Source: Anaerolineales bacterium
Lineage (GTDB): Bacteria > Chloroflexota > Anaerolineae > Anaerolineales > UBA4823
DNA: 64,000 nt
Assembly (NCBI GenBank): GCA_020061105.1
Contig: JAGUYW010000030.1
Coordinates: 20,549-84,548 of the forward strand
Direction of reading: 5' to 3'
Shown: one piece after another, positions 1,181-64,000 of the stretch
How the letters are laid out: each line of letters opens with the position of its first letter
How positions within the stretch are numbered: position 1 is the first letter of the stretch
The notes under the pieces: model-generated
The model's input: the letters and a program-made list of their open reading frames with translations, nothing else
Databases searched by the model: none
Told to the model about the DNA's origin: nothing
Made by a program: the position numbers and the translations under genes

Positions 1181-4100
1181 ATGCGTAACTTTTTCCCGTG
1201 GTGGGTCCTTTTATGCCTGATTCCGACTCTGCTCTCTGGATGTGCGCCGCGCTCCACCGCCCTGCCGGTTAGCCAGGCCCCTCCTCTCGCCACGTCCGCC
1301 CCACAACTTCCGACTTCGGAAATTTCACCCAAGGCTTCTGCGCTGTTGGGCATCTTCGCCCGTAATTTACGCTTCGAGAGCCTTTCCTTAGAACAGGGCT
1401 TATCGCAAAGTGTGGTAGTGGATATCCTGCAAGACCAGCAAGGATTTCTTTGGTTTGCCACCCAGGATGGCCTTAACCGCTATGATGGCTACGAATTCCG
1501 CATCTTTAAATTCGATCGCGATGACCCGTTCAGCCTGAGCGACAACTTTATCACCTCTCTGGATATTGATTCGGCCGGGTGTTTATGGATCGGCACGAGC
1601 AATGGCCTGAATCGCTTTGATCCTGCCAAAGGTCAGTTTGAGCGTTTCTATCACGACCCTACACAACCGGCCAGTTTGAGCGATTCAAACATCACCAGCC
1701 TGGTGGTCGGCCGCGATGGGTTGGTTTGGGTGGGTACTACCCTGGGTGGTATTAACCAGATCAATCCCGAAACTGGCGCCATCACGCGCTATCGTTCAAT
1801 CGATGGCGATCCTGATAGTTTGAGCGCTAATAGCATTTTGAACTTGTTGGAAGATCAAAACGGCGATATCTGGGCGGCTATCAATGGCGGCGGTTTGGAT
1901 CGTCTGGATCGCCAAAGTGGCCGATTTGCCCATTACACCAATGATCTGCGCAATCCGCACAGCCTGAGCGACAATGCCATTTTGAGCATGTACCAGGATC
2001 GCCGGGGGCAATTGTGGTTTGGTTCTTACAGCGCCGGGCTTAATCGATATATTCCTGAAAGCGACAATTTTATCCGTTACCAGCATGACCCTGCTGACCC
2101 TGATAGCCTGAGCAATGATGTGATCCAGTCTATCTTTGAAGATGAACAAGGTCGTTTTTGGGTGGGCACCAATGGAGGCGGGCTCAATCTGCTTGACCGT
2201 GACAGCGATCAATTCACCCATTATCGCAGAGATCCCGTTGATCCGTATAGTTTATCTAATGATCAGGTTTTTGCAATCTATCAAGATCGTTCTGGCATAC
2301 TTTGGTTTGGCACCTTTGGGGGCGGTATTGCCATGCATGATCCACGCAAAGATAAATTCTTGCGTATTCAATCCGCCCCCAATCAAACTAACGGCCTATC
2401 CAGTAACCTGACCTGGGCGATTATCCAGGATGATCAAGGCCGGCTGTGGGTTGGTACGCATGGTGGGGGACTCAATCGCTTTGATCCATCTTCCGGCGGG
2501 TGGAAGAATTATCACTCTGGCAATAGCGGCTTGAACAATGATATTGTTTATTATATTTACATCGCTCAAGATGGCCAGTTTTGGTTAGGAACGAATAATG
2601 GGCTGGCGCGCTTCGATCCTGATCGTGAAGAGTTTGAGACGTACAGCCCGGGCTATGTGGTGCTGAATATCCTGGAAAACCCGCCAGGACAGATTTGGTT
2701 TACAGCCGCCGGTTTTGGCTTAGTACGATTGGATCACCAAACCCTGCAGGCGCAGTTTTTCCAAAATCAACCTGACAACCCCGATTCTTTAGCCAGCAAT
2801 TCGATCATGGCTCTGCATCAGGCGCCGCAAGGCAATTTTTGGGTTGGCAGTGTCGGCGGCGGGCTCAATCTTTTCGACCCAATCACAGGCAAGGTGACGC
2901 GCTACGAGGTTATTTCCAGCGATACGATTTTATGCATTCATCCGACCGTTGGCGGTAGTCTTTGGCTGGGGACAACCACCGGACTGAAATGGTTCGATCC
3001 TCAGACCGGTGATCTACAGGTCTGGGGCGAGAAGGATGGCTTGCCGAATAATACCGTTTACGGTATTCTGGAAGATGAAAGTGGGCGTTTGTGGCTTTCT
3101 ACCAACCGCGGCCTCTCGCGTTTCGATCCGTTGAATAAAATATTTCGAAATTATTCCCCATCTGATGGTTTACAAAGCGTAGAATTCAACCAGATGAGTT
3201 ATTATCAAAATGCTGATGGGGTGATGTTCTTTGGCGGTGTAAACGGCATCAATCTGTTTCACCCCACCCTGGTACAGGACAACCCTTTCATCTCGCCGGT
3301 GGTGATTACAGATTTTAAACTGTTTAATCAACCTGTTCCCGTGGCTCCAGACTCGCCCCTCAGGCAGCCAATCGAGGTCACTCAAGAAATTCATTTGGAT
3401 TATACGGACGATTTTTTCGAATTCGAATTTGCTGCCTTGCATTACTCATCGCCTTTGGTGAACCAATATGCCTACCGGATGGACAACCTGGATGAGAATT
3501 GGAATTACGTAGGCAATCGGCGCTTTGCCAGTTACACCAATGTTCCGCCCGGCGAGTATGTGTTTCGAGTCAAAGCCTCCAATAGCGACGGCGTCTGGAA
3601 TGAGCAAGGTGTTGCCTTACGCATCTTTATCCCCCCGCCTTTCTGGCAAACAACCTGGTTTCGCTTGTTAGCCATTGTTGGTTTGTTCAGTGCAGTCTTT
3701 GGGATTGCCTGGCTGCGCGTGCGCTCGATTGAGATTCAACGCCAACGCCTGGAAATGCTTGTGGATGAACGCACACAGCAGTTGCGCCAGGCAATCCTCG
3801 ATTTAGAGCAGTCCAAAGAGGCCGCCGAGTCTGCCAACCGCGCCAAAAGCGCCTTTCTTGCCAACATGAGCCATGAGTTTCGCACACCGCTCAACGCCAT
3901 CCTGGGCTTTACGCAAGTCATGAAACGCGACCAGGGTATTCAACCGGCCCAGCATGAAAGCCTCGCGATTATTCAGCGCAGCAGCGAACACTTGTTGGGG
4001 TTGATTAATGATGTGCTCGATATGTCCAAGATCGAGGCTGGCCGTGCTGGGCTTAAAAACATTAATTTCGACTTGTACCGGTTGTTGGATGGCCTGGAAG

Positions 4101-5296
4101 AGATGTTCGCGCTGCGCGCCGCGGATAAAGGACTGACATTGACGTTGCATTGTTCAAGAGATGTGCCTCCGCTCATCTGCGCCGATGAAGGCAAGCTGCG
4201 TCAGGTACTGATGAATCTGCTTGGCAATGCCGTCAAATTCACTCAACAAGGCCAGGTTATTTTGCGCGTCGACCGCGTTGCCCCTGGCCAACAATCTGAA
4301 AGTCTGGAACAGGCGCGCATATCTTTTGTTATCCAGGACACAGGTCCGGGCATCAGCCCTGACGAACTTCAAACTATATTCATCCCCTTCGTGCAAACTG
4401 CTGCTGGAAAAAAATCTCAAGAAGGTACAGGCCTGGGTTTGAGCATCAGCCAACAGTTCGTCAACTTGATGGGTGGCGAGATTGGCGTCGAAAGTGTAGT
4501 TGGACATGGCAGCACTTTCTCTTTCGACATCCCTGTTACAGTTGTCGACCCGGACGAATTGGAACTTCCCCAACCAACTCGCCAGGTAATTGGGCTCGCG
4601 CCTGGGCAGCCTACTTTCCGCCTGTTGGTTGTCGATGATCAGGAAGTGAACCGCCGCTTGCTGGTGCGCATTTTCACTCCGCTGGGCTTCGAAGTGCGCG
4701 AAGCCGCCAATGGTCAAGAAGCGATCGATATTTGGGAGAACTGGCAGCCTCATCTAATATGGATGGATATGCGGATGCCGGTATTGGATGGATATGAAGC
4801 CACCCGGCGGATTAAAGCCAGCACCCGCGGCCAGGCGACGATCATTGTGGCCCTAACTGCCAGCGGCCTGGAAGAAGAAAAGAGTGTCATCCTTTCGGAA
4901 GGTTGCGATGATTACATGCGCAAACCTTTTTTGGAACGAGATCTATTCGCAGTGCTCGAACGGCATCTGGGTGTGCGCTTTGTTTACCAATCGATCGACA
5001 GAGATGCGTCTGCTGTACTGGCGCATAGTTCGCCCGATGCCCGGTCGATCATCGAAGCAGATTTTCTGGATAAGTTGGCTTCTTCATCTCCAGGCTGGTT
5101 GGATGAATTGGAACGGGCAGCCACGCTCGGTGATGTCAAGGCCTTGGAGCATTTCGCTGCCCAGGCGTCTGCAAGCGATCCTGACCTGGCCAACGGCCTC
5201 GCCAGCCTGGCGCAACGCTTTGATTATGATGGTCTGCTCGATTTGATCAAGCGCTCTCGCAAGGATGAACACGATGAATCCCAATCAACTCACTGA
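1181..5296 (+). CDS. Hybrid sensor histidine kinase: extracytoplasmic two-component-regulator beta-propeller repeats + Y_Y_Y domain, TM, HisKA, HATPase_c, REC, C-terminal helical tail
   Basis: Lipobox-like LLSGC. More than 12 repeats of the type FLWFATQDGLNRYDG. TM segment WFRLLAIVGLFSAVFGIAWL. H-box MSHEFRTPLNAI and G2 box GTGLGLSISQ. Receiver LLVVDDQEVNRRLL...WMDMRMPVLDG. GAGG RBS 7 nt before the ATG. Confidence 0.9.
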   Translation: MRNFFPWWVLLCLIPTLLSGCAPRSTALPVSQAPPLATSAPQLPTSEISPKASALLGIFARNLRFESLSLEQGLSQSVVVDILQDQQGFLWFATQDGLNRYDGYEFRIFKFDRDDPFSLSDNFITSLDIDSAGCLWIGTSNGLNRFDPAKGQFERFYHDPTQPASLSDSNITSLVVGRDGLVWVGTTLGGINQINPETGAITRYRSIDGDPDSLSANSILNLLEDQNGDIWAAINGGGLDRLDRQSGRFAHYTNDLRNPHSLSDNAILSMYQDRRGQLWFGSYSAGLNRYIPESDNFIRYQHDPADPDSLSNDVIQSIFEDEQGRFWVGTNGGGLNLLDRDSDQFTHYRRDPVDPYSLSNDQVFAIYQDRSGILWFGTFGGGIAMHDPRKDKFLRIQSAPNQTNGLSSNLTWAIIQDDQGRLWVGTHGGGLNRFDPSSGGWKNYHSGNSGLNNDIVYYIYIAQDGQFWLGTNNGLARFDPDREEFETYSPGYVVLNILENPPGQIWFTAAGFGLVRLDHQTLQAQFFQNQPDNPDSLASNSIMALHQAPQGNFWVGSVGGGLNLFDPITGKVTRYEVISSDTILCIHPTVGGSLWLGTTTGLKWFDPQTGDLQVWGEKDGLPNNTVYGILEDESGRLWLSTNRGLSRFDPLNKIFRNYSPSDGLQSVEFNQMSYYQNADGVMFFGGVNGINLFHPTLVQDNPFISPVVITDFKLFNQPVPVAPDSPLRQPIEVTQEIHLDYTDDFFEFEFAALHYSSPLVNQYAYRMDNLDENWNYVGNRRFASYTNVPPGEYVFRVKASNSDGVWNEQGVALRIFIPPPFWQTTWFRLLAIVGLFSAVFGIAWLRVRSIEIQRQRLEMLVDERTQQLRQAILDLEQSKEAAESANRAKSAFLANMSHEFRTPLNAILGFTQVMKRDQGIQPAQHESLAIIQRSSEHLLGLINDVLDMSKIEAGRAGLKNINFDLYRLLDGLEEMFALRAADKGLTLTLHCSRDVPPLICADEGKLRQVLMNLLGNAVKFTQQGQVILRVDRVAPGQQSESLEQARISFVIQDTGPGISPDELQTIFIPFVQTAAGKKSQEGTGLGLSISQQFVNLMGGEIGVESVVGHGSTFSFDIPVTVVDPDELELPQPTRQVIGLAPGQPTFRLLVVDDQEVNRRLLVRIFTPLGFEVREAANGQEAIDIWENWQPHLIWMDMRMPVLDGYEATRRIKASTRGQATIIVALTASGLEEEKSVILSEGCDDYMRKPFLERDLFAVLERHLGVRFVYQSIDRDASAVLAHSSPDARSIIEADFLDKLASSSPGWLDELERAATLGDVKALEHFAAQASASDPDLANGLASLAQRFDYDGLLDLIKRSRKDEHDESQSTH

Positions 5297-6494
5297 AAAA
5301 CAGTCGGCTTCAGAGAGCATCCTGATTGTCGATGATACCCCCGCTAACCTGCGCCTGCTCTCCGAAATTTTACAACAGCGTGGCTACCAGGTGCGCGCGG
5401 CGGCCAATGGGCGCCGCGCCTTGGCTTCGGTCGCTGCTGAACCGCCTGATCTGATCTTGCTGGATATCCGCATGCCTGAGCTAGATGGTTACGAAGTCTG
5501 CTTGCAGTTAAAAGAACGCTCCCAGAGTCGCGATATCCCGGTCTTGTTCATCAGCGCCCTGGATGAAATTCAGGACAAAATGAAGGCTTTCGCTGTTGGC
5601 GGTTTGGATTATATTACCAAGCCCTTCCAGGTTGAAGAAGTGGTCGCCAGGGTCGATACCCACCTGGCGCTGCGTCGCCTACAGAAGAACCTGCTAGAAG
5701 CCAATCAGCGCATGCAGAACGAACTGGAACTGGCAGCCCAGGTGCAAGCCAGCATGATGCGCCGCCGGTTTCCCAATATCCCTGACTGGCAGCTGGCGGT
5801 GAAATTGATTCCCGCTAAGCAAACCTGCGGCGATTTCTTCGATGTACTGCGCTTGCCCGATAGACAGATCGGATTGATCATTGCCGATGTGGTTGACAAA
5901 GGTGTTGGCGCAGCGCTGTATATGTCGATGAGTTGCGCCTTGCTGCGCACCTATGTCATGGAATACCCTACCCAACCGGCGCAGGCTTTGGCTGCTGTCA
6001 ACCAGCGCATTTTGGAAGACACCACCAGCGACCAGTTCGTCACGGTTTTTCTCGGCGTTCTCGACCCGCAAACCGGTCGCCTGCTCTATAGCAACGCTGG
6101 TCATAACCCGCCAGTGCTAGCGCGCCCCCTGCCAAAACAACCCACCAATCCGGCTGGAGGGTCTTCGTCGATTACAGAACTTGCTCGAACCGGGATGGCC
6201 CTGGGAGTCATATCAGATTCTGAGTGGCAGCAAGCCGAGGCGCAACTGGCGCCAGGGGATGGATTAGTTTTATACACGGATGGCGTTACCGACGCCGAAA
6301 ATTCTCATGGCAAGGAGTATGACGTTGCTCGCTTGCACCGTGTGGTGCAGTCCAACCTGCATTTACCCGCCGAGGGGCTGCGCGATGCGATTATCGCAGA
6401 CATCGATCAATGGACCGGTGCAGAAGGCGCTACCGCCCCTTCTGGCGGTCAGTTCGATGACATTGCCCTGATGATTCTGAAGTATACCGGCTGA
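5265..6494 (+). CDS. Response regulator receiver fused to PP2C/SpoIIE-type Ser/Thr phosphatase (RsbU-like)
   Basis: REC motifs ILIVDDTPANL...LLDIRMPELDGYEV...KPF. PP2C/SpoIIE motifs GDFFDV...IADVVDKGVGAALYMS...YTDGVTDAEN. The start overlaps the kinase stop by 32 nt (23 nt if ATG 5274 is used). Confidence 0.85.
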   Translation: MNTMNPNQLTEKQSASESILIVDDTPANLRLLSEILQQRGYQVRAAANGRRALASVAAEPPDLILLDIRMPELDGYEVCLQLKERSQSRDIPVLFISALDEIQDKMKAFAVGGLDYITKPFQVEEVVARVDTHLALRRLQKNLLEANQRMQNELELAAQVQASMMRRRFPNIPDWQLAVKLIPAKQTCGDFFDVLRLPDRQIGLIIADVVDKGVGAALYMSMSCALLRTYVMEYPTQPAQALAAVNQRILEDTTSDQFVTVFLGVLDPQTGRLLYSNAGHNPPVLARPLPKQPTNPAGGSSSITELARTGMALGVISDSEWQQAEAQLAPGDGLVLYTDGVTDAENSHGKEYDVARLHRVVQSNLHLPAEGLRDAIIADIDQWTGAEGATAPSGGQFDDIALMILKYTG

Positions 6495-53625: not shown

Positions 53626-56600
53626 TTAGTTGTCGTTCTTCCACCAGTTTTGACGCAGGGTAAAGAGGCTGGCATTGGCACGCGCCTCGAGCGTCTTTGC
53701 ACCCTGCTGGATGGCAAACTGGCGGGCAGTATCCAAACACTGTTCAGCCTGGTTGAAAATTGCCTGGCTTTGACCGGTTTGCAGCAATAGTTCGCCCTTG
53801 AGCCGGTAGGCTTCGGCCTCGAACCAGCGTTCGCGGGTTTGCACTCCCACAGCGATTGCTTCTTCCAGCGCTGCCAGGCCGCGCTCAAGCTGCCCGGCCA
53901 GCGCGCAGACCTGGGCGAACAGGATCAAAAAAGTGGTGCGGTTAAGGATTGTGCCCAGGCTTTGGTACTCTTGCATTACCTGATACATCCTCTCGACCTG
54001 TGCAAGGGCAGAAGCGCCGGACTGTGCGTAACCCCATGCCAGTAAAAAGTGCCCCCCCAACTCGTAATTGCGAAACTCATGCTGCTGGGCGATGTGCAGT
54101 AGCTTCTGCGCATGGAGACAAGTAGCTTCGATTTGACCGGTGAAGGCATGTTGCCAGCTGGCTCTGCCTAAAGCATAACAGGATGTCATGGGAACAGAAA
54201 CTTTTTCTGCCAGATCCAGGGCCTCTTGGCTCGCTCGCACGGCTTGTTCTTCATCTCCCATCAACCATTCGCAGTGGCTCAGGTAAGCCAGGGCTACCAC
54301 AGAAGGTGACATACCATATTGATACGCCAGGGAACGTTGTTGCGCGACATCGCGCGGCTGGCTGGCGCGCATGAGTATCTGGCGAGCTTCGATTAACCTA
54401 CCCTGATACAGCGGGCTGACTTGCAGGTTTGCCAGGCATTGCAGGTTAGGGTCGCCAATTTTCTGCGCCAGGTTGTAGAAACGTTTGACCAACCTGTCTA
54501 CTGCAATATGGTTGGCCCGCCCCAAATGGTACACAGAAAGCAGCCACAAGGCGGGGACCAACCGGGCGTCATCAGCCAGTTTGTGGCAAAGCGCTTCTGC
54601 ATCCTGGTAATTTTGTTCAAGGTCGGGTGCTGCCCATCCACGAGCGGCAGTAATCGGTGGCCCCAGACTGAGATGAAGGTCCAGCGCCTGCCAGTCACGA
54701 TTCTCGGATTCGGGCAAAGACCGGAGGTGACGGAGAGCTTGTTGGAAATGGTCGATGGCGGCGCGGCTGGCACTTAACTGGAGGGAGTATTTACCTGCCA
54801 TGGTGTAAAACTGGACAGTTTTTTCGATCTGCCCAGCGGACTCAAAATGGCGTGCCAATACATGGGCAACCTTGGCTAGTTTATCTTTATCGTGGATATT
54901 GTACTGCTCGAGTATTGCACCTACCTTACCATGCAGCCGTGATTTTTCCACCATATCCAGGTGGTTGTACAGGTAGATCTGAAACAGCGAGTGGCGAAAG
55001 CGATAGTGAGACAGGTTTTGTCCGCCTACCTGCTGCAGGCTTTGGGCAGTCACTAGCTGGTGTTGTTTGCTGACCTCCCTGCTTAACAGGTCACACACTC
55101 GCTGTACATCTTTCCCCGCTACACCTGCGATAACCTCAGCAGTGAATTGTTCTCCTTCCACGCAGGCGATATTCAAAAGCTCCTGACATTCCTCTGAAAG
55201 GTGGGCGATGCGCCGTGCGATCACTGCCTCTACCCGGCCTGGCAGCTTCTCCCAATTTAGATGCTGACTGGTGATCCATTTCCCCCGGTTGTTCTTGATA
55301 ATTTCATCGCGCAACTGCATGCCGCGCAAGAGCTCGATCGCAAACAGGGGGTTCCCCGAAGTATGGTGATAAAGGGAGTCTCGAAAGTGCTGGTCGAGCT
55401 CGTTCGGCTCGCTCTGGATCAGCTCTTTCACAAATAGAACGCCCTCGCTTTGCATCAGGTCGACCTGGATGTCGCCGTACACCGCACTCAGCTCCTGGAC
55501 GATCTCCAGCAAGGGGTGGGCTTCGGGGCTTCGCTTAACGATTACTTCTTCGGGACGATAGGCTCCCAAGATGAGAATTTTACTGCCGACGATCTGGCGT
55601 GCCAGGTGGAAGAGCAGGTTCACTGACCCGGGGTCGATCCACTGTAAATCGTCGAGCACCAAAATTAAGGGATGACGTCGCGCCAATTGGCAGTAAACCT
55701 GCGTTAGCTGGTCGAACAAGACAGCCTGTGATACTCGAGTCCGGAGCAGGGGATCAGACGCGCCCTTGATACGTACCTGCAAACGTCTCAGGGATTCTGG
55801 GGAGATGCCGGTATTCAGGCGCGCCAGCGATAGCAAATCTTTTCCCGAGAGGAAGCGGTCGAACAGGTCTGGTCCATGTTCCATTAAGACATCCAGTGTA
55901 TGGGGCAGGAACTTCCACAGCCGCCGCGCATGTTCTGTCGTGATGACGCCGGAGGACACCGGGATTTCCACCTCGCCGGCAAGCATATGTAGGGTGCTCA
56001 GAAAAGGATAATAAGGATCCCCTTGGCCGGTAAATGCGCTGCACTGCCCCCAGGCAACCAGTAGATCGGGGTAGGTAAGCATGGCACGGCGGGAAAATTC
56101 TGCCAGCAAAGCTGTCTTGCCGCTGCCCGGTTCACCAGTCACAAAATAAACCCTGCCATGCCCTTGGTTGGCTTCCTCCAAGGCTTTCTCAAGCAGTCCA
56201 AGCTCAAGCTGGCGCGCAAAGAAGAGCGGGAATCTATCTTTAGAAAGACGACCCTCCACCAGAAATTCAGGGATGTGCTTTTGAGGAAGCATCTCATTCC
56301 CTGTCCATGCAGGTGGCTGAGGCATACTGCCCAGAGATATCCCAGGTTTACCATCTCGGAGCTGTTCGTAAAGCCGGACGGTTTCTGGCTCAGGCTTGAT
56401 GCCCAGGTCACGAGCGAGGTGAGAGCAGCATTCGTCGTACAATACCAGTGCGGTAGAGCGCCGGTTCAGAGCAGACAGGAGTTGCATCTGGTAACGGTAG
56501 GCGGCCTCATCCCATGGTTCCAATTCAAGATAATGCCGGGTGTACTCAGCCGCGGCTTCCAGTTCGCCCCATTGCTCTTGCGCCAGCGCCAGCCGTCTTA

Positions 56601-57117
56601 GGATCTGCAGCAGCCTCTGGTGAGCCTGTTCGCGGGTCGCTAATATCCATTCCTCCAAAGGTGCGCTGTCAACCGAGAAACCTTCCAGGAATTCCCCCCG
56701 ATAGAGAGCCAGAGCAGCTTCCAGTTGGTGGATGCTGATTTCGCCTGGCAATATCTCTTTCCGGGTGTCGGTTTGTGCTGGTCGATCCAGAAATGCCCAC
56801 AAATCGAGCCAACAGTCGCTGTCACGATTGAACTGGAGGGTGGTTTCTGAAAGGAGGAAAAATGAGGGCTCTGACCCTGCGTCTCCAAGTATATGGCGCA
56901 GGTTGGAGAGTGCGTTGCGCAGGTTGCTTTGAGCCGATATTTCGGGCAGGTCGGGCCACAACAGGCCGGCTAATGTAGCGCGTGACCAGGGACGGCGACA
57001 TTCGACCATCAAATAAGCCAGCAGAGCTCGTACTTTGTTGGAGCGGAATCCACTCAGGTGGTGACCTTCCAACTCAGCGGCAAAAGGGCCTAAGAGTCTG
57101 ACCAAGAGGCGCGACAT
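53626..57117 (-). CDS. SARP/BTAD-family transcriptional regulator fused to AAA/NB-ARC-like ATPase and TPR array (STAND architecture)
   Basis: N-terminal winged helix plus BTAD (LLGPF....G........K.RALLAYL; ALALYRGEFLEG; YRYQMQLL). Walker A GEPGSGKTAL and Walker B ILVLDDLQWID. The C-terminal ~500 aa are TPR-like repeats. Confidence 0.85.
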   Translation of the reverse strand: MSRLLVRLLGPFAAELEGHHLSGFRSNKVRALLAYLMVECRRPWSRATLAGLLWPDLPEISAQSNLRNALSNLRHILGDAGSEPSFFLLSETTLQFNRDSDCWLDLWAFLDRPAQTDTRKEILPGEISIHQLEAALALYRGEFLEGFSVDSAPLEEWILATREQAHQRLLQILRRLALAQEQWGELEAAAEYTRHYLELEPWDEAAYRYQMQLLSALNRRSTALVLYDECCSHLARDLGIKPEPETVRLYEQLRDGKPGISLGSMPQPPAWTGNEMLPQKHIPEFLVEGRLSKDRFPLFFARQLELGLLEKALEEANQGHGRVYFVTGEPGSGKTALLAEFSRRAMLTYPDLLVAWGQCSAFTGQGDPYYPFLSTLHMLAGEVEIPVSSGVITTEHARRLWKFLPHTLDVLMEHGPDLFDRFLSGKDLLSLARLNTGISPESLRRLQVRIKGASDPLLRTRVSQAVLFDQLTQVYCQLARRHPLILVLDDLQWIDPGSVNLLFHLARQIVGSKILILGAYRPEEVIVKRSPEAHPLLEIVQELSAVYGDIQVDLMQSEGVLFVKELIQSEPNELDQHFRDSLYHHTSGNPLFAIELLRGMQLRDEIIKNNRGKWITSQHLNWEKLPGRVEAVIARRIAHLSEECQELLNIACVEGEQFTAEVIAGVAGKDVQRVCDLLSREVSKQHQLVTAQSLQQVGGQNLSHYRFRHSLFQIYLYNHLDMVEKSRLHGKVGAILEQYNIHDKDKLAKVAHVLARHFESAGQIEKTVQFYTMAGKYSLQLSASRAAIDHFQQALRHLRSLPESENRDWQALDLHLSLGPPITAARGWAAPDLEQNYQDAEALCHKLADDARLVPALWLLSVYHLGRANHIAVDRLVKRFYNLAQKIGDPNLQCLANLQVSPLYQGRLIEARQILMRASQPRDVAQQRSLAYQYGMSPSVVALAYLSHCEWLMGDEEQAVRASQEALDLAEKVSVPMTSCYALGRASWQHAFTGQIEATCLHAQKLLHIAQQHEFRNYELGGHFLLAWGYAQSGASALAQVERMYQVMQEYQSLGTILNRTTFLILFAQVCALAGQLERGLAALEEAIAVGVQTRERWFEAEAYRLKGELLLQTGQSQAIFNQAEQCLDTARQFAIQQGAKTLEARANASLFTLRQNWWKNDN

Positions 57118-59494: not shown

Positions 59495-59521
59495 TTGAAA
59501 ACCATGTGAGTCTGGTATAAT
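59495..59521 (+). promoter_or_regulatory. Putative promoter with extended -10 for the Prx-like gene
   Basis: TTGAAA-N15-(TGg)TATAAT lies ~70 nt upstream of ATG 59589. Confidence 0.5.
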
Positions 59522-59588
59522 GACAACATAGAGATCGGGTGGGGGGAATGGGCATCTACAAAATAACTAATCTTTCGAGGTTCGAAAA

Positions 59589-60065
59589 ATGAGTCGTTTA
59601 TCGCTGGGCGATACAGCCCCAAATTTTGCGCTACCCAACCATGAAGGCGCAGTGTTCAAATTATCGGATGTCTATCGTACTCAGAATGTGCTGCTGGTTT
59701 TTAACCTTGGTTTTGTCTGACCGCATTGCACCAATCATATGGCGCAGTTGCGCCAGGACTATGCAAAGTTTCAAGACTTGAACAGCGAAGTGCTGGTGAT
59801 CTTGCCGAATGGGCCTAAGATGATCGAGCGGTATGCTCGCCGCACTGCTACACCTTACCCGATCTTGAGCGACAAGGGCGCCCGGGTTGCAGAACAGTAT
59901 GGCATCAAAACCAGGCGCCTGGTGCAGGTCGCCGCGTTCACGCCCAGCGTGTTCCTGGTCGATCGAACGGGAACGATCCGTTACACCAACTATTCGACTT
60001 CGTATATCAAGGAGCCGGATAATGGCGAGCCGCTGGCGGTATTGGCGTCAGGCAAATCACAATAA
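59589..60065 (+). CDS. Peroxiredoxin-like (AhpC/TSA, PRX_like2-type) thiol-disulfide oxidoreductase with in-frame TGA at the redox site: candidate selenoprotein (U-P-H-C)
   Basis: ATG 59589 is in frame with ORF 59739..60065. The only interruption is TGA 59718-59720 (codon 44). Conceptual product: MSRLSLGDTAPNFALPNHEGAVFKLSDVYRTQNVLLVFNLGFV-U-PHCTNHMAQLRQDYAKFQDLNSEVLVI... The TGA sits where this family carries the first Cys of CxxC. A SECIS-like hairpin lies downstream. Confidence 0.6.
59736..59763 (+). promoter_or_regulatory. SECIS-like hairpin 15 nt downstream of TGA 59718
   Basis: Lower stem CATA/TATG, a 4-nt 3' bulge, upper 6-bp stem TGGCGC/GCGCCA, apical loop AGUU (contains GU). Confidence 0.45.
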
Positions 60066-60118
60066 TTACCCTGTGGGTTTTGAAATTGATCGATGGGGGG
60101 TCATGTTGACCCTGGTGA

Positions 60119-60491
60119 GTGCTGGAATGGTCAGCGGCAGCGTGCAATATCTGTACGATCTGATTGGTGGAGATGGCTTACCAGCGCGCGCCGTGGTTCC
60201 GGTTAGTGTGTGAGCCGCTCAAGGTGAAGCTTCAAGCGACTCAAGTGCGCGTTTTCTTGATCGGCGACGGGGTGCAATGCGCTGTCAAAGGCCAGTAGAC
60301 TCCACAGGAATATTACAATATCGAGCGGATGATTATGCCTGTCCTGCACGCCGGGGAAGTAGCAACTTGAGGAACATGCCAAAAAGCCCGAGGTCTCGGG
60401 CAAGACGTGCTGGATCGCTAAGCTCCAATTCGGGACGAAGGAACTGCTTACAGATTGGACCATGGAAGCCGACAAAGGATTGGTTTTTTGA
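60119..60491 (+). pseudogene. YchN/DsrE-family gene remnant with TGA at the C-x-x-C cysteine (ancestral selenoprotein?), plus TAG, another TGA and a +1 frameshift
   Basis: Frame A reads ...AYQRAPWFRLVCEPL...VRVFLIGDGVQCAVKGQ-TAG(60296)-TPQEYYNIERMI...GEVAT-TGA(60368)-GTCQKARGLGQDVL. After a 1-nt shift near 60410-60416 it reads IAKLQFGTKELLTDWTMEADKGLVF-stop(60489). This matches the family blocks GQK..GYYN, C-x-T-C..RG and W....ADKVL.F. A further TGA lies at 60161 in the N-terminal strand. Confidence 0.5.
60386..60401 (+). promoter_or_regulatory. SECIS-like hairpin 15 nt downstream of TGA 60368
   Basis: 6-bp stem GCCCGA/TCGGGC with apical loop GGUC. Confidence 0.4.
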
Positions 60492-60514
60492 GGCCTCGGG
60501 ATTGGAATTTAAAG

Positions 60515-60554
60515 CAGTTTTGGAAGTGACCTGCCACGTTCACTTCCAAAACTG
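60515..60554. repeat. Perfect 15-bp inverted repeat with 10-nt spacer
   Basis: CAGTTTTGGAAGTGA-(CCTGCCACGT)-TCACTTCCAAAACTG, read directly. No U-tract follows. Confidence 0.8.
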
Positions 60555-60744
60555 TTGAAGAGAATGCAAGGGGCGCGAATGCCACCCCCATCCATCATTT
60601 TACACTTTGAAATCATCTCAGGTAAGTGACACCTGTCCATAAAAAAATAGGGGCGATTGACCCTAACCAAAAATGGGGGCATTTACTATGATTAAGCTCG
60701 GAAGATTAAGCCAGGATGAGATATTGTTTCCGAGGAGAATGCAT

Positions 60745-61995
60745 ATGAAAAGTAAATGGTTGATCTTAGTTGTTCTGACGCTGGCGGCCTTGCTGATAGC
60801 AGGTTGCGCCGGCGCGCAAGGTCCTGCAGGACCCGCCGGCCCGGCAGGACCGGCAGGTCTGAAAGGCGACCCCGGCCCAGCAGGTCCGGCAGGCCCAAAG
60901 GGCGATCCTGGCCCGGCGGGTGAAGCCGCCTCCGCCTTCCGCACCTATGCAGGCGACGAAGCTTGCGCCGGGTGCCACACGGATCTTTACGACAAATACA
61001 AGATGTCAGGTCATCCCTGGAAATTAACCAAAGTTGAAGGTGGACAAGCCCCAAATTATCCGTTCACCAAGCTCACTGAGTTGCCACAAGGCTATACCTG
61101 GGACGATATTTTGTATGTAATTGGCGGTTACGCCTGGAAGGCCCGTTTTGTAAACAAGGAAGGCTATATCATCACAGATGAACCAGGTAAGACTGGCAAT
61201 GCAGATTACTTGAACCAGTGGAACTTTGCGAATACTATTGTTGGTAAGCAAGCTGGTTGGGTCAAGTACAATTCCGGTAAAGAGAAGCTGCCATATAATT
61301 GTGGCTCTTGCCACACCACTGCATATAGTCCACGGGGCAATCAGGATGATTTGCCCGGTTTGGTAGGCACCTGGAAACAAGAAGGGATTCGCTGTGAAGA
61401 ATGCCATGGCTTTGGCGGTTTGCACATTCAGGATCCACAAGGCGCCCCGATGGATGTTGTGCGCGATTCCGAGATGTGCGGTAAATGCCATCGCCGCGAC
61501 GATGTAGAAAATGTCAACGCCAAGGGCGGCTTCATTGAGCATCACGAACAGTATGAAGAACTATATCAAAGCAAGCATATCACAATCAACTGTGTAGTCT
61601 GCCATGACCCGCACACTGGCGTAGTTCAATTGCGCCAGATGGGTATGCAGACCACTCGCACTACTTGCGCGAATTGTCACTATAAACAGGCCCAGGTACA
61701 AAACAATGAAATCCATGCTGCAATGAGAGTAGATTGCGTGGAGTGTCATATGCCTAGGCTGGTCAAAACTGCCTGGGGTGATATCGATAAGTTTACTGGC
61801 GATATTCGCACCCACCTGATGGCCATTGACTCGCAGCAGCTTACCACTTTTGGCGAAGATGGCAGTCTGGTTAGCGGTCAAATCGGTTTGGATTGGGCTT
61901 GTCGGCACTGTCACGTGGAAGGCGGCAGCGCAACTGCAAAAACCGATGAAGAATTACTGAATGGAGCGTCTGATTATCACACACCCAATCCATAA
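60745..61995 (+). CDS. Octaheme c-type cytochrome lipoprotein with N-terminal collagen-like (G-X-Y)12 tether
   Basis: Start at ATG 60745 (GGAGA RBS) and lipobox LIAGC. Eight CxxCH motifs: CAGCH, CGSCH, CEECH, CGKCH, CVVCH, CANCH, CVECH, CRHCH. Confidence 0.85.
60820..60927 (+). repeat. Collagen-like triplet repeat coding region
   Basis: Encodes [36 protein letters not shown]. The GC-rich repeat also creates spurious antisense ORFs (60663..61054). Confidence 0.85.
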
Positions 61996-62023
61996 CCATC
62001 TCTGGGCTTAATCTTTCACCTAC

Positions 62024-62060
62024 GAGTTCCCCTATTGGCCGGTGTAATCACGCCGGCCAA
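62024..62060. terminator. Bidirectional terminator between cytochrome gene and response regulator gene
   Basis: 9-bp stem ATTGGCCGG/CCGGCCAAT with a 10-nt loop, followed by TTTTATTT. Confidence 0.6.
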
Positions 62061-62065
62061 TGCTT

Positions 62066-62749
62066 TTATTTCGGAAGCTCAGGGCCATCTTGCTTATTCA
62101 ACCGATCCAATAGATTGTTTTGAATAGCATAAACAGCAAGCTCGATGCGGTTGTTTAAATTCAGCTTTTCAAGAATAGTGCTGATGTAGTTGCGAACGGT
62201 TTTTTCCTGTAAATTTAATGTCTGGCCAATTTCAAGGTTGGTTTTTCCATGCACGACTTCTGCAAGCACATCCAATTCGCGCTCTGATAGATTATAGAAA
62301 GCCTGGTCATATAGTTTTTGTTCCACGCGGCGCACATGCGCCAATAAATGAGCGGCCGCGGCGGGGTCGAGTAACGCCTCGCCATGCGCTGCCGCTTTGA
62401 TGGCGCGCAATAGTTCATGGTTACCTACCTGCTTAAGAACATAGCCAGTTGCTCCAGCCCGGATGGCTTGCACAACAAGGTTGTCATCCTGATAGGATGT
62501 CAGGATGATGATTTTACTTTGTGGGAATTTTTGGCTTATCTGGCGGGTAGCCTCAATCCCGCTGGTGCCGGGCAAGCGGATATCCATTAACACCACATCG
62601 GGACGCAACCTTTCCACGCCAGCCAGAGCCTCGGATGCGTTACCCGCCTCGCCTACCACTTGCATGTCTTCCTGATCATTGATTAACGTCATCAGACCAA
62701 GACGGACGATTTCATGATCATCCACCAGTAAAATACGAATTTTTTCCAT
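62066..62749 (-). CDS. NarL/LuxR-family response regulator
   Basis: REC motifs ILLVDDHEIVR...LMDIRLPGTSG. C-terminal LuxR HTH LSERELDVLAEVVHGKTNLEIGQTLNLQEKTVRNYIS. Confidence 0.9.
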   Translation of the reverse strand: MEKIRILLVDDHEIVRLGLMTLINDQEDMQVVGEAGNASEALAGVERLRPDVVLMDIRLPGTSGIEATRQISQKFPQSKIIILTSYQDDNLVVQAIRAGATGYVLKQVGNHELLRAIKAAAHGEALLDPAAAAHLLAHVRRVEQKLYDQAFYNLSERELDVLAEVVHGKTNLEIGQTLNLQEKTVRNYISTILEKLNLNNRIELAVYAIQNNLLDRLNKQDGPELPK

Positions 62750-63963
62750 CAGCTTTCTTCTTCCCAGGGAAAATAGAGGTGCAAGGTAACGCCCTTACCC
62801 GGCTGGTTGGAGATATTCAATTTTCCTCCTAGCAAGCGCGCTCGGTCGCTCATGTTACGCAGCCCATAACCTGGTTTGGCGTCTGCCAACATTCCTCTAC
62901 CATTATCACGGATCGAGATGAAGATGAGGTGATCAGTGGGGGCAAGAGATATATCAACCTGGCTGGCATGTGCATGGCGAAATACATTAACCAGCGCATC
63001 GCGCACGATTGCCAAGATGTGCGCCAATCTGGCGGCTGACAAGGTGCAGTCTTCAGGTAGTTCGGAAATCAGCCGGATTTGTACACCTCCCACTATTTGC
63101 ATTTCCTGGATAAACTGTTCCAGCGTTTTTGTCAGCGGCTGGTTTTCCAGCGCTACCGTCATTTCGCTCAGGTTGCGTCGCATATCTTGGACGGCGCCAT
63201 CCAAGGCGCTAATGGCGCTATTTAAACGATCAGCCACTGGGCTTCCGGGTGTTGCCAACCTGGCGGCCGATTCGACCAGTAGCCCGGCCGTGTAAACAGA
63301 TTGCAGCGCCCCATCATGCAATTCACGCGCCAGGCGTTCGCGCTCGATGGCCAGGATTTGTTTTTGCTCCATATCTTCTAACCGCCTGGCGTATTCTAAG
63401 TCGAACACCTCCAGTCCTCGGATCACGGAAACAGCCAGCATCAATCCCACAATCGAGCGGAAAATGCGCACCGGAATCTGGATCATATGAACAAATGCTT
63501 GCGTATTAAACCAATTTGCCGGAAAGAAAGGCGCGGGAGGAGGTACTAATCCACTGAGCAGAGCATACACAAAAAGCACATAGCTGACCATATGCAAACT
63601 GCGGGTAATATGCGGCGCATTGAGCTCAGCGATCTTTTTACGGGCGTAATAGCGCAAGGCAAAGCCTGATAACAATCCTGCTGGTAGGGAGATGAAATAA
63701 CGCGCCAAAGCATTCCCCGTGTTACGCCACGTCTCGCGATCCGGCAAGGTGAGTAAGAGAAAGCCAAAAACAACGATAATCCAGATTGTCAAAATGACAG
63801 CCGGGATCGCGTAAAACCAGCCTTGGTTTCGGTCTTTGGGGAGCAGAGATATGCCAAACTGGAAAAGAGCCGTAAACGAGGTTGCCAGAACCAATAGTTG
63901 TACACCTGTCCAGAAGAAGATCGACTCGACGCTGAGATTGGGGGATTGTAATGGAATCAACAA
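62749..63963 (-). CDS. Membrane sensor histidine kinase, HisKA_3 (NarX/LiaS/DesK-like) class
   Basis: ~6 N-terminal TM segments. H-box RELHDGALQSVY. HATPase motifs FRHAHA...IRDNGRGM...GYGLRNM. The stop overlaps the response regulator start by 1 nt. Confidence 0.85.
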   Translation of the reverse strand: MLIPLQSPNLSVESIFFWTGVQLLVLATSFTALFQFGISLLPKDRNQGWFYAIPAVILTIWIIVVFGFLLLTLPDRETWRNTGNALARYFISLPAGLLSGFALRYYARKKIAELNAPHITRSLHMVSYVLFVYALLSGLVPPPAPFFPANWFNTQAFVHMIQIPVRIFRSIVGLMLAVSVIRGLEVFDLEYARRLEDMEQKQILAIERERLARELHDGALQSVYTAGLLVESAARLATPGSPVADRLNSAISALDGAVQDMRRNLSEMTVALENQPLTKTLEQFIQEMQIVGGVQIRLISELPEDCTLSAARLAHILAIVRDALVNVFRHAHASQVDISLAPTDHLIFISIRDNGRGMLADAKPGYGLRNMSDRARLLGGKLNISNQPGKGVTLHLYFPWEEES

Positions 63964-64000
63964 TTCGCCCCATTCATAGAGACCATGAACCAGCCCGAAC

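Follow-up and report, generated by a model that had tools for sequence, protein, structure and literature searches.

The question raised by this locus is whether a short plus-strand sequence that resembles a DsrE/YchN-like redox gene, and that carries an in-frame TGA at the site of a motif cysteine, is a working selenoprotein gene, the fossil of one, or a product of faulty assembly. It lies at positions 60119-60491 (+) of a 64,000-nt stretch of DNA from an Anaerolineales bacterium; this whole stretch, which was analysed throughout, is referred to as the window. The locus is very probably a non-functional chimeric pseudogene, in which the 5' fragment of an unnamed, Cys-rich upstream gene (here called geneX) is joined to what is left of a DsrE-like selenoprotein gene. 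Judged from its sequence, the DsrE-like part appears to be recently inactivated and 5'-deleted, with both the UGA and a SECIS-type hairpin still intact. Its features are as follows.

60119-60224 (+): 5' fragment of geneX (CNIC...CYGC family); homology spans 60137/60143-60224, about codons 14-42 of about 130
60161-60163 (+): in-frame TGA in the geneX fragment; Arg (CGC) in relatives; a nonsense lesion, neither a Sec codon nor part of DsrE
60222-60247 (+): deletion junction; geneX codon ~42 joined in frame to DsrE-like codon ~30-35
60224-60491 (+): DsrE-like selenoprotein gene remnant; family positions ~29-116 of 116, with the native stop TGA at 60489-60491 once the frameshift is allowed for
60296-60298 (+): premature TAG at a site that is Glu/Asp in the clade; simplest change GAG to TAG, with no indel nearby
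60368-60370 (+): ancestral Sec codon TGA of the U-G-T-C motif; the column is TGA or Cys in relatives
60386-60401 (+): SECIS-type hairpin GCCCGA-GGTC-TCGGGC; stem 60386-60391 / 60396-60401, loop 60392-60395
60412-60413 (+): 1-nt insertion, CTGGATC against CTGATC in relatives; +1 frame for the last 26 codons

When 60060-60560 is read in three frames, the mod 3 = 2 frame (by coordinate) reads ...VRVFLIGDGVQCAVKGQ(stop)TPQEYYNIERMIMPVLHAGEVAT(stop)GTCQKARGLGQDVL, with its stops at TGA 60161, TAG 60296 and TGA 60368; the C-terminal part lies in an adjoining frame and reads IAKLQFGTKELLTDWTMEADKGLVF(stop). A preliminary description of this DNA had recognised a DsrE/YchN-family protein here, and in profile searches the similarity of 60224-60490 (+) is significant. 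The conceptual product matches Pfam DsrE (PF02635) with an E-value of 1.6e-8 and 35.2 bits (cut-off 22.7), over profile positions 30-116 only. The family protein HMM scores 83.6 bits for positions 29-91 in the mod 3 = 2 frame, and positions 91-116 are found in the mod 3 = 0 frame. In nhmmer, a DNA profile built from seven close relatives aligns 60224-60490 with family positions 100-365 of 366 (E 2e-64), with exactly one indel. The closest relatives are intact Sec forms from Anaerolineae and other Chloroflexota, with 72-76% amino acid identity; a metagenome scan for nearer relatives yielded none above 77%.

The N-terminus is a different matter. Positions 1-28 of the protein HMM are without a match in any frame, and about 28-33 N-terminal positions are absent. 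An HMM of the N-terminus alone, run on every frame of 60066-60245, scores the real sequence below many of 300 shuffles; the string 'RLVCEPL', previously taken for the DsrE N-terminus, thus has to be reassigned, and its DNA is that of the upstream gene. At the DNA level, similarity to the 5' ends of relatives does not rise above chance, the gene's first ~99 nt being absent, and the DsrE 5' part was not found anywhere in the 64-kb window. The same HMM, DNA and window tests rule out the mod 3 = 1 frame ('YLYDLIGGDG') as a frameshifted DsrE N-terminus, and blastn rules out 60066-60223 as a duplicate of the remnant.

The origin of the upstream part emerges from comparison with relatives (loci fetched for this purpose carry L-numbers, database proteins P-numbers). 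When 60066-60223 is compared with all fetched loci by short-word blastn, it matches L088, L101 and L103 at 83% identity over 59 nt, and the match falls in each case in a separate gene of ~125-145 aa directly upstream of the DsrE-like gene. The product of this gene reads ...RKNAVCNICTVRLVEMAYRRAPWFRLVREPLKAGMRLMAL...CYGC..., and the window's AACNICTI(stop)LVEMAYQRAPWFRLVCEPLK matches it in tblastn with 76% identity over 33 aa (E 1.8e-12). Among in-frame start candidates of the fragment, GTG 60119 comes first. Aligned translations read CNICT[V/I]RLVEM in L088, L101 and L103 and CNICTI(stop)LVEM in the window, so that TGA 60161, which had been placed in the first DsrE beta-strand, replaces an Arg codon of geneX instead. 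Neither Pfam nor NCBIfam contains a match to the geneX family, which has more than 130 relatives in databases, some labelled 'nitroreductase'. Its Cys-rich members of ~125-145 aa include the following.

L088, 116-508: geneX
L103, 796-1221: geneX
L107, 3001-3366: geneX
L106, 3001-3381: geneX

How the two parts came to be joined is best seen against L088, to which the window aligns by blastn in two collinear blocks (60143-60224 to 161-242, 78%, E 1.6e-15; 60248-60491 to 618-860). This arrangement indicates that ~350 nt have been deleted and the leftovers fused in frame. Compared with L088, geneX lacks its 3' three-quarters, the intergenic spacer is gone, and DsrE has lost its first ~30-35 codons.

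Further lesions lie within the DsrE-like part itself. TAG 60296 is, as had been described, an in-frame stop inside the DsrE-homologous region, but it does not stand for a conserved Lys; the 13 close relatives have Glu or Asp codons at this site (GAG in five, GAA in three, GAT in three and GAC in two). The change of frame near 60410-60416 holds, and is wholly explained by the single inserted nucleotide at 60412-60413, the sole indel of the remnant in the nhmmer and MAFFT alignments. With the start codon and N-terminal motif missing, an additional TAG and a frameshift, the copy is very probably a pseudogene derived from a known selenoprotein family and no longer a functional member of it. The locus thus combines homology to a functional gene with disabling lesions at the ancestral position, and the suggestion of a selenoprotein gene fossil stands: the family is large and contains Sec and Cys forms, TGA and hairpin are as in intact Sec orthologues, and the copy is inactivated.

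The family in question was predicted by Zhang, Fomenko and Gladyshev in 2005 (PMC1088965), and 'DsrE-like protein, PF02635, UxxC' is listed among selenoprotein families (PMC1088965; PMC1794560; PMC13188914; PMC9312934); the remnant is an ordinary gene fossil of this "UxxC" family, already described since that time. A scan of one genome per species returned at least 592 DsrE-like loci, and 80 were retrieved for alignment. All 80 read on in frame to ...LVF(stop). The first position of their [U/C]-x-x-C motif, with which TGA 60368 had correctly been aligned, is TGA in 39 and TGC or TGT in 41, which also supplies the intact Sec and Cys orthologues that the preliminary description had proposed to seek in related genomes. 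Sec forms come mostly from Anaerolineae and other Chloroflexota, and Cys forms mostly from Acidobacteriota, Betaproteobacteria and Spirochaetes.

In protein databases the same family looks quite different. The 94 clusters found by protein search comprise five of full length (112-121 aa) and 89 short ones (75-88 aa); the latter end just before the Sec/Cys position, most of them at ...GEVAT, a signature of gene callers halting at the Sec codon. Four of the five full-length clusters have Cys at this position (for example P0001, ...GEVATCGTCQKARGLG) and one has Trp. This last protein, P0003 (...GEIGTWEACAKARG), is a curiosity in its own right; the Trp would abolish the redox motif, and it is probably due to a TGA-to-TGG change or a base-call error. 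Another oddity is L031 (~6310-6330; Anaerolineae bacterium UTCFX1), an otherwise intact Sec gene with TAG for Glu eight codons before the normal stop (DWTL(stop)VDQVIVY), which is either a tolerated truncation or early decay.

The hairpin had been reported 15 nt downstream of the TGA, and it is found there: it begins 15 nt after TGA 60368-60370, with 21 nt between TGA and loop. Bacterial SECIS elements are stem-loops directly 3' of the UGA with a G in the apical loop (PMC10778597, PMC1088965), and 16-37 nt separate the UGA from that loop (PMC10778597), a range that includes the 21 nt of the remnant. The element is identical to that of L005, L006, L008, L009 and other intact Sec orthologues. 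All 48 other Sec forms examined have a hairpin, either with the remnant's sequence or of the type GGCYCG-CGGGCT-CGRGCC. In an alignment of 49 distinct Sec sequences (48 relatives and the window), the five core pairs form in at least 98% of the sequences, and pair 21-32 shows compensatory changes (CG 35, UA 10, UG 3, AU 1). Pairing is seen in 86% of the cells of the Sec forms against 10-49% with slid partners, and their covariation score was reached by none of 500 shuffles, with the caveat that the hairpin overlaps the conserved A-R-G-L-G codons. In 40 Cys forms only 39% of cells in the same columns pair, as in the slid controls, and the hairpin is absent. This contrast between Sec and Cys forms, together with the coupled GCC/GCT...GGG/GAG changes, argues for selection at the RNA level despite the codon overlap. 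The remnant's 6-bp stem, GGTC loop, distance from the UGA and covariation in Sec forms only are thus those of a putative bacterial SECIS. Rfam reports only tRNAs for the whole window at gathering thresholds, and only noise for 59500-60700 at E-values up to 10, so no curated SECIS model applies.

The preservation of these elements has to be seen in the light of the age of the decay. Of the differences between remnant and relatives, 65% fall at third codon positions, while positions 1 and 2 together take a share of 0.35, compared with 0.33 +/- 0.04 between intact pairs. Such an intact-like share implies that most of the divergence arose under purifying selection and that inactivation was recent; from this codon-position pattern we infer a recent decay, and the Sec codon and hairpin would be unchanged only for that reason. 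Signs of relaxation can nevertheless be seen in five remnant residues that occur in none of 85 relatives, where intact members have on average 1.7 such residues each; among the five are a Lys at a site otherwise restricted to I, L or M and a Gly at an I/L/T/V site (K73 and G86). The perfect TGA and hairpin could be taken as weak evidence for residual constraint. More speculatively, a surviving UGA and SECIS on the 3' part of the Prx-like mRNA might still bind SelB and thereby affect Sec decoding of that upstream gene, or yield a 30-aa Sec peptide.

The Prx-like gene just mentioned is the immediate upstream neighbour.

59589-60065 (+): Prx-like (AhpC/TSA) selenoprotein gene, intact; Pfam AhpC-TSA E 2.8e-25, profile positions 2-123 of 124

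'Prx-like protein, UxxC' has likewise been among the listed selenoprotein families since 2005 (PMC1088965, PMC1794560, PMC13188914, PMC9312934). The gene's TGA (59718-59720) lies in V-U-P-H-C, and a hairpin, TGGCGC-AGTT-GCGCCA, occupies 59740-59755; both are conserved in L104 (89% nucleotide identity) and L105. Use of Sec by the lineage is supported indirectly by this intact UxxC gene with its conserved TGA and hairpin, and by the dozens of Chloroflexota genomes that carry DsrE-like Sec forms; within the window, ARAGORN, Rfam and the Pfam scan of 30 other ORFs did not find selA, selB, selD or tRNA-Sec. Database homologues of the Prx-like protein are mostly (about 115 of 120) C-terminal fragments of 104-115 aa, that is, Sec genes mis-called after the UGA.

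That two neighbouring redox genes both carry a TGA with a downstream hairpin had been put forward as an argument for selenocysteine. Both genes do so, and the Prx-like one is intact; the pairing, however, is not conserved, and the spacings, thought to be equal at 15 nt, are 15 nt in the DsrE-like remnant and 19 nt in the Prx-like gene. In L104, which holds the closest Prx orthologue, homology stops at the borders of the coding sequence, and the flanks differ and contain neither geneX nor DsrE DNA; the two Sec genes are therefore adjacent by rearrangement rather than as a conserved pair. A conserved Prx-DsrE operon is also ruled out by the absence of Prx beside any of ~100 DsrE-like loci, unrelated weak matches aside. 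Conversely, the window is collinear over 60224-63999 with L046 (an Anaerolineales MAG), with the shared order DsrE-like gene, multihaem cytochrome, response regulator and histidine kinase, but not upstream of 60224, and L046, syntenic downstream, has no Prx gene. Since the collinearity begins inside the gene, the remnant occupies an old position of the DsrE-like gene.

Several observations concern the surroundings. The cytochrome gene at 60673-61995 is predicted to encode a lipoprotein-type multihaem protein with eight CxxCH motifs and an N-terminal collagen-like Gly-X-Y repeat; its L046 homologue (55% identity) aligns only from residue 92 onwards, so the repeat is variable or lineage-specific. 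Just past the remnant's stop, 60515-60554 contains a perfect 15-nt inverted repeat with a 10-nt spacer and a 16-bp stem (CAGTTTTGGAAGTGA / TCACTTCCAAAACTG). The folding energy of 60492-60575 is about -35 kcal/mol and no T-run follows the hairpin, which may be a terminator or a regulatory element before the cytochrome gene. A 17-nt inverted repeat, 88% complementary (60083-60099 and 60585-60601; AAATTGATCGATGGGGG / CCCCCATCCATCATTTT), flanks the whole remnant and may be due to chance or be a trace of rearrangement. Further away, 53626-57117 (-) is an intact ORF of 1163 aa that, from its sequence, looks like a large transcriptional regulator; a relative with 27% identity occurs in L048, near that locus's own DsrE-like gene.

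In other genomes, geneX is followed by an intact DsrE(U) gene in L088 and L107-109, and gene clusters in relatives comprise PadR, TauE, sometimes a SAM methyltransferase, geneX and DsrE(U). Parallel losses are also found: L101-103 retain only the last ~18 DsrE-like codons, ...SMDLLTDWTMEADQVLVY(stop), after geneX (L101 ~380-450, L103 ~1225-1293), and L106 has geneX but no DsrE-like DNA (3381-4200), with IS1 transposase genes nearby. A doubtful but conceivable extension is that the remnant marks a conserved, uncharacterised module of Anaerolineae and other Chloroflexota (PadR, a TauE-family transporter, with or without the SAM methyltransferase, geneX and the DsrE-like selenoprotein), possibly for handling sulfur, selenium or metalloids, from which the selenoprotein has been lost repeatedly and independently (window, L101-103, L106).

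This picture has to be weighed against other explanations, of which assembly error, raised at the outset as an alternative, deserves the most attention. On this view the organism would possess an undamaged, working gene; base-call errors would account for the TAG and the extra G, and a collapsed or chimeric assembly for the missing 5' part. The extra G does lengthen a G run (CTG-G-ATC), a typical site of indel errors, and the retained part is conserved like a living gene, with a perfect Sec codon and hairpin. Four independent lesions would, however, have to be crowded into 370 nt of a 64-kb stretch in which 30 other scanned ORFs are undisrupted. These ORFs have either a good Pfam match or none; none looks split or truncated, and many match end to end (MM_CoA_mutase 2-512 of 512, Aldedh 1-460 of 461), which makes a general problem of assembly quality unlikely. 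The main lesion, moreover, is the ~350-nt deletion of the gene's 5' third, and its junction unites two genes that also adjoin each other in relatives, with order and strand unchanged, as expected of a genuine internal deletion and not of a random chimeric join. K73 and G86 are radical changes at otherwise invariant hydrophobic sites and suggest relaxed constraint, and remnants or losses have arisen independently in L101-103 and L106. We therefore regard an artefact as improbable.

It is less credible still that the locus continues to be translated, whether by read-through or pyrrolysine at the TAG with a programmed +1 frameshift, or as a micro-peptide of ~30 aa with Sec from ATG 60329 (MIMPVLHAGEVAT-U-GTCQKARGLGQDVLDR) that uses the surviving SECIS. 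The intact UGA and SECIS-type hairpin at the correct spacing and the in-frame ATG 13 codons upstream of the TGA would suit such recoding, as would the probable presence of the remnant on the Prx transcript, there being no plus-strand terminator-like site between the two. Yet at these sites the 13 close relatives all show Glu/Asp codons and an unshifted frame, and hence no conserved recoding signal (pyrrolysine at TAG 60296 was dismissed on the same grounds); a protein that lacks the N-terminal third cannot adopt the DsrE fold; and ATG 60329 lacks a clear ribosome-binding site, just as the micro-peptide lacks comparative support. Hardly worth entertaining is the last candidate, the 90-aa minus-strand ORF at 60203-60475 as the true gene, with the plus-strand similarity incidental. 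Although no other uninterrupted ORF in the region is as long, a search for homologues in Pfam gave no match, in keeping with its earlier dismissal as spurious, and the plus-strand DNA profile (E 2e-64) and third-position-biased divergence in the plus-strand frame both speak against it. G+C-rich coding DNA often has long ORFs on its antisense strand.

For the chimeric pseudogene, a coherent history can be proposed. The ancestral state, to judge by relatives, would have been geneX, a gap of ~5-150 nt, and a DsrE/YchN-like selenoprotein gene of ~116-121 codons, in which the UGA of the U-G-T-C motif would have been decoded as selenocysteine by SelB with Sec-tRNA(Sec), bound to a 5-7-bp hairpin beginning 15-17 nt after the UGA. 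In the window's lineage, as the alignment shows, a deletion of ~350 nt took away the greater part of geneX, the spacer and, from the DsrE-like gene, the first ~30-35 codons with the start codon and the INDxPYGxERxYNALR motif, and it joined the leftovers in frame. Three further lesions are seen: in the geneX part TGA 60161 replaces Arg, and in the DsrE-like part TAG 60296 replaces Glu/Asp and one nucleotide is inserted at 60412-60413. As a consequence, no DsrE-like protein should be produced from the locus, and transcription of the remnant DNA would at most be passive, the intact Prx-like Sec gene lying upstream.

By itself the remnant matters little, being a decaying copy of a selenoprotein family known since 2005. 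Its value lies in offering a clean, datable snapshot of selenoprotein gene loss in which UGA and SECIS-type hairpin are still perfect. It also illustrates how an in-frame gene fusion can mislead a reading from sequence only, as the apparent N-terminus belongs to another gene. Beyond the locus, public protein databases list most of the DsrE-like and Prx-like Sec genes of Chloroflexota in a form cut at the UGA, and the DsrE-like gene often travels with geneX, an unannotated Cys-rich partner.

In comparison with known systems, the remnant shares with the DsrE-like selenoprotein family its domain, the TGA at the first position of [U/C]-x-x-C and an in-ORF hairpin with a G-rich apical loop at a bacterial SECIS distance; it differs in lacking the start codon and first ~30-35 codons and in carrying a nonsense codon and a frameshift. 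Among solved structures, the nearest is that of E. coli YchN (PDB 1JX7), to which the intact relative L001 aligns over 112 residues (E 1.1e-20). In YchN, the remnant's Sec column is occupied by the first Cys of LCKTC; YchN has Cys instead of Sec, contains no SECIS, and is of full length. The likeness to the E. coli fdhF SECIS, pointed out in the preliminary description for the GGUC loop, is borne out by the fdhF sequence (TGA...GGTTGCA-GGTC-TGCACC, in 5419 of 5426 genomes under fdhF annotation): both are in-ORF stem-loops just 3' of the UGA, with a GGUC apical loop closed by A-U. In contrast to fdhF, however, the remnant has no evident bulged U, its stem is a short, perfect 6-bp helix, and the UGA-to-loop distance is 21 nt rather than 18 nt; in many members of the DsrE-like family, a 6-nt CGGGCU loop replaces GGUC. 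As for gene loss, Zhang et al. (2006) described a balance between the loss of selenoproteins and the origin of Sec from Cys (PMC1794560). Against that background, the window's gene has been lost in a lineage that otherwise keeps Sec genes, and it has been caught at an intermediate stage, with UGA and SECIS-type hairpin intact and the remnant fused to a fragment of its neighbour.
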